Part shown: positions 21,045 through 23,222 of the stretch, in pieces
Layout: every line of letters starts with the position of its first letter
How positions within the stretch are numbered: the first letter of the stretch is position 1
NCBI GenBank assembly: GCA_964554645.1
Contig: CAZKPK010000001.1
Span: forward strand, 3,697-67,696
Source of the DNA: an uncultured Candidatus Saccharibacteria bacterium
Lineage (GTDB): Bacteria > Patescibacteriota > Minisyncoccia > Phycocordibacterales > UBA9973
Reading direction: 5' to 3'
DNA: 64,000 nucleotides
Program-made: the position numbers and the translations under genes
Notes under the pieces: generated by a model
Databases searched by the model: none
The model's input: the letters and a program-made list of their open reading frames with translations, nothing else
Told to the model about the DNA's origin: nothing

Positions 21045-23222
21045 ATGGAAAAAATAGAAGCTAAAAAGAAAATACAGAAATTGCGAAGCGAAATCGCGCG
21101 ATTGAGAAATGCATATCACATAGAAAATGCGCCGAATGTTACCGATGACGTTTATGATTCTCTAACTCGCGAATTGAAAGAAATTTTACAAAAATATCCG
21201 GAGTTCAAAGACGAAAATTCAGGAGAGAACAGAGTGGCAGGCAAACCACTGGATAAATTTGTCAAGGTAAAACATCAAAATAGAATGCTCTCTTTAAACG
21301 ACGCTTTCTCTTATGAAGAGCTCTATGATTGGGAGAAAAGGGTAAAAAGATTACTTGGCGGTTTAACCGCCAAGTTAGAATATTTTTGTGAAGTAAAGTT
21401 TGACGGTCTGGCGGTGTCATTAATTTATGAAGATGGAAAATTTGCGCAGGGCGCAACTCGCGGAGATGGATTTGTTGGCGAAGATATAACCCAAAATTTG
21501 AAAACTATACATTCGATTCCTCTAGAATTACCCCCTCCCCTTAATAAGGGGAGGGTTGGGGAGGGGTCAATTCCCGCATTTCTAGAAGTTCGCGGCGAAG
21601 CGCTAATATCAAAAAAAACACTTATTTTACTTAACAAAAAAAATGCAAAAGAAGGTAAAGCGCTTTTTGCCAACACTCGAAATGCCGCCGCTGGAAGCCT
21701 TCGTCAGCTCGATCCGGAACTTGCCAAAGAAAGGCATTTAGATTTTGTGGCTTATGATTTAAACTTGGCGGTTAAACCGCCAAGTGGCGGTTTAACCGCC
21801 AAGTGGCCACAAAATCATTCTGCTAAACATGAAATGCTTCGAAGTTTAGGATTCAAAGTTGAAAAATTAGAGGCTAAATGCGAGAACTTAGAAAAAGCGA
21901 TATCTTTTACAAAAAAATTTGAAAAAATAAGACCCAATTTTCCATATGGCACAGATGGCATTGTAATATCCGTGGACGATTTAAAATTACAGGAAGTTTT
22001 GGGTGTTGTCGGCAAAGCTCCGCGCTATATGGTGGCCTTTAAATATCCAGCCGAAAAAGCAACTACTTTAGTAAAAGAAATTTTGATTAATGTCGGGCGC
22101 ACTGGCGTTTTAACACCGCTGGCAATTTTTGAACCAACCTTGGTCGCGGGTTCGCAAGTGTCCAAAGCGACTCTGCATAATATGGATCAAATAGAGCGTT
22201 TGGATTTACGAATCGGAGATACCGTGGTGATCGAAAAAGCGGGCGATGTCATTCCAAAAGTGGTGGAAGTATTGGCTCGGATGCGCACTGGCAAAGAAAA
22301 GAAATTTAAAATGCCAAATAATTGTCCGACTTGTGAGGGGAAGGTGGAAAAGAGAAAGTTGCCAGCGCAACAATCTGTCGCTTACTATTGTTCGAATCCA
22401 AAATGTCCAGCCAAGGATGAAAGATATTTGGAGCATTTTGTGTCCGTGTTTGAAATTTACGAACTTGGCCCAAAAATTTTAAGCCGTTTTAAAGATGAAG
22501 GACTGATTACCGACGCAGCCGATATTTTTACGCTGACGAAGGAGGAAATAGCGCCTTTGGAACGATTTGGGGAAAAGTCCGCAGAAAATATTATTAAAGA
22601 AATAGAAAGCAAGAAGAAAATTACGCTTTCCAAATTTCTTTGGGCGCTGGGGATACTCCATGTGGGGGAAGAGACAGCGCGAGATTTAGCGGATCATTTT
22701 GGAACTTTAGAAAAATTTATATCTTTAATTAGGCAAGAGAAAAGTTTGAATAATTCTCCCGCCTTCGCCCTCGGAGACAAAGGACAGGGGACCCACGGCT
22801 CCTTGAATTCTTCAAACTTTTCTCTTGATATAGAAAACATCGGTCCGGCGGTATCAAAAAGCCTTTATGATTTTTTTGGCGATAAGCGTAATTTAGATTT
22901 TTTAGAAAAGTTGCAAAAAAACGGGGTGGTGGTGGAAAAAATGGAAAAAAGAAAGGCGGGAAAATTTACCGGATTTACTTTCGTTTTAACCGGCACGCTC
23001 TCGCAAATGTCGCGCGAAATTGCCAAGGAAAAAATAATTTCTTTAGGCGGTAAAGTGGCGGGTTCTGTTTCTAAAAATACTTCTTATGTAATAGCTGGCG
23101 TTGAGTCCGGTCATTCCGACTCTGAGAGTCGTCAGACTCGAATGAGCTCCAAACTCAAAATTGCCGAAAGACTAGGGGTAAAAGTAATAAACGAAAAAGA
23201 TTTCTTAAATATGCTACACTAA
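21045..23222 (+). CDS. ligA: NAD-dependent DNA ligase
   Basis: 725 aa; adenylation KFDGLAV, OB fold, CPTCEG..C Zn finger, HhH, C-terminal BRCT (FVLTGTL). Confidence 0.97.
21354..21374. repeat. family C palindrome (single) inside ligA
   Basis: CTTGGCGGTTTAACCGCCAAG (21 nt), translated LGGLTAK. Confidence 0.9.
21531..21567. repeat. GC-rich palindrome inside ligA
   Basis: CCCTCCCCTTA-A-TAAGGGGAGGG (21533-21555) + TTGGGGAGGGG; translated [12 protein letters not shown] between conserved IPLEL and [10 protein letters not shown]. Confidence 0.8.
21764..21803. repeat. family C palindrome doublet inside ligA
   Basis: CTTGGCGGTTAAACCGCCAAG + TGGCGGTTTAACCGCCAAG; translated [13 protein letters not shown]. 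Confidence 0.9.
22734..22827. repeat. 94-nt hairpin element with 17-nt perfect terminal inverted repeats inside ligA
   Basis: CAAGAGAAAAGTTTGAA (22734-22750) vs TTCAAACTTTTCTCTTG (22811-22827); GC-rich centre; translated [31 protein letters not shown]. Confidence 0.75.
23112..23144. repeat. 33-nt alternating-hairpin insert in ligA BRCT region
   Basis: CGACTC-TGA-GAGTC-GTCA-GACTC; translated [11 protein letters not shown] between AGVESG and SKLKIA. Confidence 0.6.

Follow-up and report, generated by a model that had tools for sequence, protein, structure and literature searches.

A 36-nt hairpin-forming insert in the BRCT domain of a DNA ligase, a probable member of a mobile family dispersed across Patescibacteria

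The ligA gene and the extra stretch in its BRCT domain

The DNA analysed here, referred to as the window, is a stretch of 64,000 nucleotides. An open reading frame on its forward strand, from position 21045 to 23222, encodes an NAD-dependent DNA ligase (LigA) of 725 amino acids, in which Pfam identified the adenylation, OB, Zn, HhH and BRCT domains. The protein was aligned with its 120 best homologues (665-757 aa), which are from Candidatus Nomurabacteria / Paceibacterota and share 68-75% identity with it; the resulting alignment contains 121 sequences.

The original prediction was that a hairpin insert of 33 nt, at positions 23112 to 23144 (CATTCCGACTCTGAGAGTCGTCAGACTCGAATG, 11 residues in the LigA reading frame), splits the conserved G-SKL motif of the BRCT domain. 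The alignment with the Pfam BRCT profile (PF00533), proposed as a check of this claim, identified residues 639-722 as a LigA BRCT domain (E = 3.4e-15) and placed 84 residues of the window protein on 73 profile positions, showing that the insert is extra material. In 113 of the 121 LigA sequences the motif AGxxxG is followed by SKL with no residue in between; an insert at exactly the same point, between G and SKL, was found in 8, the window protein among them. When the BRCT domain was compared with that of Escherichia coli LigA (2OWO, residues 597-669), a single gap of exactly 12 residues was obtained, again between G and SKL. The net addition is located between G689 and SKL and amounts to 12 residues or 36 nt, positions 23111 to 23146, so that the position of the predicted insert was correct and its length of 33 nt and 11 residues was not. 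Since the insert is absent from most LigA relatives, as well as from the E. coli enzyme, the alternative that the extra residues are a normal BRCT loop fails.

The ligA gene of the window carries at least four further in-frame palindromic inserts besides the 36-nt unit. In eight relatives, one of these (20 residues, positions 22734 to 22827) is located elsewhere in LigA. Throughout the window, 19 of the 30 strong G+C-rich hairpins lie inside long ORFs.

Copies of the unit in other genes and genomes

An exact degenerate pattern for the core of the unit was searched against 185,579 species representatives. Matches were found at 49 places in 37 assemblies, several of which have two to four copies. 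The labels point to CPR lineages for nearly all of the named assemblies (Nomurabacteria, Paceibacterota, Parcubacteria, Zambryskibacteria, Terrybacteria and bins with the label Saccharibacteria); L016 bears the label Gammaproteobacteria, and a few records say no more than 'bacterium'. Sequence conservation is inflated in this genome-wide sample because it was collected by an exact pattern, and only the ligA sample, gathered by protein homology, is unbiased in this respect. Altogether, the window copy belongs to a 36-nt family with 56 other non-redundant places. Within the window the hairpin motif occurs once, against 0.02 occurrences expected. What shows it to exceed chance is above all its identity to this 36-nt family.

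The copies are found in both orientations, in intergenic or short-ORF DNA and inside long ORFs. At least 11 different host proteins were confirmed by Pfam, and the reading frame is open in all of them. They include Fmt (two sites, in opposite orientations), Fpg/MutM, peptidyl-tRNA hydrolase (Pth), topoisomerase I (TopA), the RNase P protein (RnpA), a Mur ligase, a prepilin peptidase, a class-V aminotransferase and a VirD4-like coupling protein. LigA itself has a second site: three loci (L006, L045 and L047) carry the unit after residue 166 and have none in the BRCT domain. Depending on frame and orientation, the unit is read in proteins as GRSDSESLQTRM, as VVQTLRVFRLEE or, antisense, as SFESEDSQSLND. 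Of its six frames, two contain no stop in any copy, two are open in part of the copies and two are always closed; the genic copies use the open ones. Copies were also found to be nested, one (L003) having 30 nt inside the first loop of the unit and another (L034) having a unit inside a unit. The insert had been presented as a peculiarity of ligA, a view that does not hold for a family whose copies, in either orientation, are dispersed over many genes and many CPR genomes.

No copies of the unit were found in the viral contigs scanned, and Rfam at gathering threshold gave no match for the unit in the window. Among 826 ORFs around 49 loci no protein family that could mobilise the unit recurs next to the copies, the recurrent families being housekeeping ones only, and no transposase such as RAYT or TnpA was found near any copy at these 49 loci. 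Hammerhead-like core motifs, looked for in the unit by eye, did not fit it.

Borders of the unit and the insertion junction

The borders of the unit were derived from the 57 copies. Conservation falls to background outside positions -5 to +32, that is, outside a GG followed by 36 nt, for which the consensus is TCGTTCAGACTCTGAGAGTCTTCAGACTCGAATGAG; the window copy reads TCATTCCGACTCTGAGAGTCGTCAGACTCGAATGAG. Of the two bases preceding the unit, the G at -4 is present in 57/57 copies and the G at -5 in 51/57. At base +31, 42 copies have A and 14 have G, and the unit therefore ends mostly in GAG, while base +33, directly after the unit, is random. The ends form terminal inverted repeats of 6 bp: in the window the 5' hexamer TCATTC (positions 23111 to 23116) and the 3' hexamer GAATGA (23140 to 23145) also form the outer stem of the DNA fold, and in the family consensus TCGTTC and GAATGA are complementary at five of six positions.

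In ligA the unit sits between bases 2 and 3 of a glycine codon (GG^N, where the caret marks the junction), without target duplication. The GG at positions 23109 to 23110, bases 1 and 2 of the codon of Gly689, is the putative target, as suggested by the copy profile and by the empty ligA sites, of which 44/49 loci read GGN TCN. The displaced third base of the original codon (position 23147) now completes an AGN codon together with the last two bases of the unit; this is AGC (Ser701) in the window, which accounts for the second serine there, and a serine codon in most LigA carriers. At one locus (L001) the displaced base is A and the codon becomes AGA, arginine, in agreement with the residues TRMRSKL in protein P0013. 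The GG^N junction thus explains why either Ser or Arg follows the insert.

A direct comparison was possible between a filled site (L002) and an empty one (L138) in proteins that are 84% identical. The two differ cleanly by 36 nt, and apart from an ambiguity of 1 nt the target is not duplicated. The reading frame of ligA remains intact because the unit consists of 12 codons and contains no stop in the frame concerned.

Hairpin pairing and covariation

Three short arms lie between the terminal hexamers. Arm 1, CGACTC (positions 23117 to 23122), forms a 6-bp stem with arm 2, GAGTCG (23126 to 23131), across the loop TGA; arm 3, GACTC (23135 to 23139), is a direct repeat of arm 1 and pairs with the GAGTC of arm 2 across the loop GTCA. 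Arm 2 is thus common to both hairpins and the two pairings are mutually exclusive, as had been predicted.

The arms were found to covary in the family. Among 56 non-redundant copies the arm positions switch together, as A/T/A in 38 and as G/C/G in 15, and are mixed in 3 only. The closing pair of the hairpin formed by arms 1 and 2 (hairpin 1) is A-T in 30 copies, T-A in 11 and C-G in 7, and is therefore of Watson-Crick type in 48/56. At the level of sequence, these three types of closing pair represent real compensatory evidence for hairpin 1. The two haplotypes of the arm positions could instead mark two lineages by descent and not repeated compensation.

The covariation also bears on a resemblance noted earlier, between the hexamer CCGACT of the window copy and the hairpin of another repeat of the window, family A (CTCCGACTTCAGTCGGAG). 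The hexamer is literally present in both, but its C is a minority variant (8/57 copies, the consensus being CAGACT) and is paired with a compensating G. The window copy has the C-G type of closing pair and therefore reads CCGACT; the resemblance is coincidental and kinship with family A was rejected.

Folded as DNA, the window unit gave -7.8 kcal/mol (z = -1.9) and the family consensus gave z = -0.1; as RNA, the 71 nt around the unit fold better than shuffled sequences (z = -2.7). Since the thermodynamic significance of the hairpin is weak, support comes from covariation and from membership of the family, not from folding energy. The selected structure is more likely to be a DNA or strand-independent one than a signal in the mRNA, because the unit works in both orientations.

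At six loci the unit was observed at the centre of a larger conserved structured element of approximately 125 nt. RNAalifold predicted 40 pairs for these six sequences, 16 of them with compensatory changes. In most of the six loci the larger element directly follows a tRNA or tmRNA gene, and Rfam at permissive E-values reported only tRNA and tmRNA at these loci. Where flanks were readable, a direct repeat of the 3' end of the tRNA or tmRNA gene was found after the element (exact in L041, degenerate in L025 and partial in L030), a pattern that resembles integration but comes without an integrase. The larger element could be the parent or master form of the 36-nt unit.

Effect of the insert on the protein

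An AlphaFold2 model of the window LigA, built on the 121-sequence alignment, had a mean pLDDT of 75.8. Values below 50 were obtained only at residues 167-173, 244-251, 566-598 and 688-700, and the ligA DNA has palindromic inserts at all four of these segments. The model retains the BRCT strands (681-684) as well as the helix after them (697-710). Given that low pLDDT is limited to the inserts and that strands and helix are kept, the model suggests that the insert is best seen as a tolerated surface loop directly before the conserved SK. Most likely, translation runs through the unit and yields a loop of 12 residues on the surface of the ligase that does no harm.

History of the copies at the BRCT site

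Conservation within ligA was determined for ten LigA genes gathered by protein homology. The unit is on average 93.7% identical between them, and 93% identical at third codon positions. The flanking DNA is far less conserved: 59% identity over 42 nt upstream, 69% over 61 nt downstream and 49% at third positions. The seven other LigA carriers of the 121-sequence alignment have near-same DNA as the window (GGTCGTTCAGACTCTGAGAGTCTTCAGACTCGAATGAG), and the peptide RSDSES(L/R/P)QTRM is conserved among the carriers.

In a neighbour-joining tree of LigA the carriers of the BRCT-site unit are scattered, and the nearest relatives of each carrier are without the insert; the carrier P0057 and its insert-free neighbour P0060, for example, share 89% identity. 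No clustering of carriers was detected, two carrier neighbours being found among the top four against about 1.9 expected by chance. Because the carriers are scattered and their nearest relatives lack the insert, repeated gain, or gain with precise loss, is favoured over plain vertical descent. A metagenome scan with LigA for a conspecific pair of filled and empty sites gave nothing closer than 76%.

The history of the BRCT-site copies may nevertheless be partly ancient. Three loci (L062, L107 and L115) have degenerate copies in which one arm is broken and the frame is intact, which indicates that some copies are old. A stronger version of this view, which concerns the history of the ligA copies only and is compatible with an element family, is that a single insertion took place in the BRCT loop of an ancestral ligA, was inherited vertically and was precisely lost in most lineages, the DNA of the unit being kept constant by selection on a nucleic-acid structure and not by recent transposition. 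The identical site and orientation of all approximately 12 BRCT-site copies would be accounted for, as would the degenerate copies that kept the frame, and the LigA tree has a star-like shape with little resolution. We consider this version possible but doubtful: the carriers do not cluster, very many precise 36-nt deletions would be required, and the unit also occupies a second site in LigA and no fewer than ten other genes. GGNTC is, moreover, present in nearly all empty ligA sites, making recurrent hits at the BRCT site feasible.

Interpretation

These findings identify the stretch, with a probability of roughly 0.78, as a copy of a non-autonomous, hairpin-forming, mobile or formerly mobile family of 36-nt units dispersed across Patescibacteria/CPR. 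The unit is sharply bounded, adjacent to GG, free of target duplication, conserving in its hairpin and present at non-orthologous sites. It is best read as a translation-tolerated palindromic mobile element of the kind of the Rickettsia palindromic elements (RPEs) or intragenic REPs, new to CPR bacteria.

Explanations in which the unit acts on behalf of ligA were weighed against this reading. The two exclusive hairpins might form a switch in the ligA mRNA that regulates translation, pausing or stability of the ligase message; alternative pairings do exist, the arm positions covary and the RNA around the unit folds better than shuffles. Yet the stems are just 5-6 bp long, the consensus folds no better than shuffled sequences and 113/121 LigA relatives do without the unit. 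Moreover, approximately 5 distinct gene sites are sense and 7 antisense, and further copies are intergenic, a distribution that no strand-specific RNA role fits, so that a switch is very unlikely. Selection on the protein, for a functional, lineage-specific BRCT extension such as an acidic, serine-rich loop (SDSES) beside the SK of G-SKL, would be in keeping with the peptide conserved among carriers and with the position of the insert directly before the conserved SK. Such selection does not explain why synonymous positions are equally conserved (93%, versus 49% in the flanks), nor why the same DNA is read in other frames and antisense in unrelated proteins, and the loop has a pLDDT below 50; we regard a functional extension as highly improbable.

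It is also conceivable that the unit is never translated, being excised from the mRNA like an intron or bypassed by the ribosome as in gene 60. A compact structured element within a highly conserved motif could suggest as much, and CPR genomes are known for insertions in their rRNA genes. Against this, each genic copy that was examined adds exactly 12 codons net and introduces no stop in the frame of its host, genic copies are confined to the four of six frames that are ever open, the displaced host base completes an AGN codon and Rfam gave no match. Loss of the unit from the message or from translation thus appears extremely unlikely.

If the unit belongs to a mobile family, a trans-acting enzyme would recognise the hairpin of arms 1 and 2, probably on single-stranded DNA, and would join the unit 3' of GG. 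Conservation of the hairpin by compensation, together with the lack of duplication, suggests an HUH/Y1 transposase of RAYT or IS200/IS605 type as a candidate, whereas a GG target without duplication recalls the IS607-type serine transposases. Selection would then filter the insertions: those at GG^N in a glycine frame would land in loops, 12 codons would hold the frame and, in genes, only the stop-free frames would survive. The unit is presumably transcribed and translated with its host gene, and LigA would gain a hydrophilic, disordered loop of 12 residues between beta-strand 3 and the next helix of the BRCT domain, with the fold intact. In ligA the unit probably persists as nearly neutral.

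A bolder proposal is that an undescribed mobile system of Patescibacteria may use the unit as its module for recognition or recombination, the unit being exactly 12 codons long, joined at GG^N and 'codon-neutral by design', its junction favouring glycine codons in loops and its hairpin being kept by compensatory change. We hold this to be unlikely; if true, it would make the unit able to colonise essential genes across the whole radiation.

That distant CPR lineages share a nearly identical unit is a sign either of an enzyme actively mobilising it in trans or of horizontal spread, and the loops of LigA that permit insertion can be read from its hot spots. Very small palindromic inserts that keep the frame seem to pervade the essential genes of ultra-small CPR bacteria, the ligA of the window alone having five; they have consequences for the annotation of CPR genomes, for homology searches, for the prediction of structures and for quality checks based on length.

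Comparison with known systems

In the full-text literature searched, whose coverage is incomplete, no description of intragenic palindromic elements in CPR/Patescibacteria was found. The closest parallel in kind is provided by the RPEs, selfish palindromic repeats of approximately 100-150 bp that form ten families in Rickettsia and are inserted in frame in unrelated housekeeping genes (Ogata et al. 2000; PMC10969869). As summarised in the latter source, they fit the fold of the host protein, occur also in non-coding DNA, lack their own transposase and are restricted to Rickettsia. The unit resembles them in being a dispersed palindromic repeat located in frame in at least 11 unrelated, Pfam-confirmed proteins. 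It differs from the RPEs, as that source portrays them, in its length of 36 nt and its Patescibacteria hosts, and in its three-arm layout, its GG^N junction and its near-identical sequence over many CPR lineages.

REPs are imperfect palindromes of 20-40 bp, some of which are intragenic, particularly in genes for replication and repair, and add residues to the protein (Di Nocera et al. 2013, PMC3733652). REPs, which include GTAG- and CGTC-tagged ones, are thought to be mobilised in trans by RAYT, an HUH tyrosine transposase that recognises the hairpin (PMC3733652). The cognate RAYT gene typically has REPs on its flanks. The unit matches REPs as characterised there in its length, in being multi-copy (2-4 copies in several draft genomes) and in having a hairpin, hairpin 1, supported by covariation. 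Unlike the REPs of that account, it has no terminal GTAG or CGTC: its ends are TCGTTC and GAATGAG, and CGTC occurs only internally, in the C-G subtype. A considerable fraction of its copies is genic and not extragenic, and no RAYT was found near them. CPR bacteria are absent among the hosts of intragenic REPs named in PMC3733652.

IS607 elements all insert at GG without duplication and have GG also at their termini (Chen et al. 2018, PMC6188088). Such termini agree with an exchange across a core of 2 bp. They are of kilobase size and encode TnpA and TnpB (PMC6188088). The unit likewise lies at GG without target duplication, the net insertion being equal to its length, and it contains TTCAGACTC twice, similar to the short direct repeats of IS607 ends. 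In contrast to IS607, its 3' end is GAG in most copies and not GG, and neither a TnpA nor a MITE derivative was linked to it. IS200/IS605 (PATE-like) mobilisation relies on a hairpin recognised on ssDNA and on insertion, free of duplication, 3' of a short specific target. In relation to it, the unit has a hairpin with three types of closing pair and no duplication; its target is only (R)GG.

Hairpin repeats of mitochondria also nest and enter coding regions. These GC clusters or repetitive hairpin elements are short, G+C-rich hairpins that invade an A+T-rich compact genome, as reported for yeast (PMC4478555) and sponges (PMC2800124). In contrast to the unit they are organellar and unrelated in sequence, and in these two reports neither a GG^N junction nor a 12-codon design is shown for them.

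In-frame palindromic selfish DNA is already known, as RPEs (PMC10969869) and as intragenic REPs (PMC3733652), at least in the form that these two sources give. Beside them, the 36-nt unit offers a clean and very small model of selfish DNA living inside conserved proteins.

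Palindromic inserts in ligA, and a tRNA look-alike downstream

The ligA gene of the window was found to carry at least four more in-frame palindromic inserts, at positions 21353-21375, 21533-21555, 21763-21804 and 22734-22827, which belong to families different from the 36-nt unit. Three of the four low-confidence segments of the AlphaFold model of LigA (residues 167-173, 244-251 and 566-598) match these further inserts, and the inserts fall at insertion hot spots that many LigA relatives have in common, located after aa 107, 166, 247, 440 and 571.

The insert at 22734-22827 is MITE-like and 94 nt long, with perfect 17-bp terminal arms (CAAGAGAAAAGTTTGAA / TTCAAACTTTTCTCTTG). 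It occupies approximately residues 564-595 of LigA, where it interrupts the HhH_2 domain, and codes for a 20-residue peptide. Eight relatives (homologues P0001, P0011, P0017, P0029, P0084, P0090, P0092 and P0107) have a peptide of this family at another LigA site, after aa 247.

Directly after ligA (23234-23287) there is a truncated sequence that resembles the 5' half of tRNA-Ser(GGA), with 44 of 73 aligned positions identical; the intact tRNA-Ser gene lies about 90 nt downstream (23326-23411). The listed ORF 23371-24654 overlaps this tRNA gene; its true start is therefore probably located further downstream.

Hairpins elsewhere in the window

Within the window, 19 of the 30 strong G+C-rich hairpins lie in long ORFs. 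A CTTGGCGGTT(T/A)AACCGCCAAG hairpin family, also represented by three copies in ligA, occurs as a double copy at 53546-53595, inside ORF 50120-53791 (1223 aa). The group designated family A consists of composite arrays of nested G+C-rich palindromes (CCCCTCAAGAGGGG, CTCCGACTTCAGTCGGAG and others), located at 8388-9120, 9497-9601, 15946-16060 and 30981-31082; these arrays are found mainly between ORFs, with one inside ORF 29439-31367.

Nested copies, hosts and a conserved element around the 36-nt unit

Nesting was observed at two loci from other assemblies. At L003:12140-12200, the unit in ligA contains, in its first loop, a 30-nt insert (CCTCGGGGCTGAGTCCTCGGGACGAACGCC) that keeps the frame; at L034:1760-1890, one 36-nt unit is placed within another, and the nested pair adjoins a 30-nt sequence of the same type as the L003 insert. 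A single copy of the unit occurs in a bin labelled 'uncultured Gammaproteobacteria' (L016, CAZBKB010000001.1). Because almost all of the remaining named hosts belong to CPR lineages, this copy possibly reflects a mislabel, mis-binning or transfer.

At six loci (L025:2164-2296 and L017:6353-6488 on the plus strand; L030:1-126, L041:1346-1481, L057:4054-4184 and L035:12-141 on the minus strand), a conserved structured element, about 125 nt long, has the unit at its centre. Rfam gave no match to this element, for which RNAalifold predicted 40 pairs, 16 of them with compensatory changes. A tRNA or tmRNA gene is located directly upstream in most of the six loci and, where the flank is readable, a direct repeat of the 3' end of that gene comes after the element; in L041 the repeated sequence, present twice, is AAGTCTCCCCCTCGGCACAA. 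The element and the flanking tRNA/tmRNA 3'-end repeat constitute, without an integrase, an integration-like signature.
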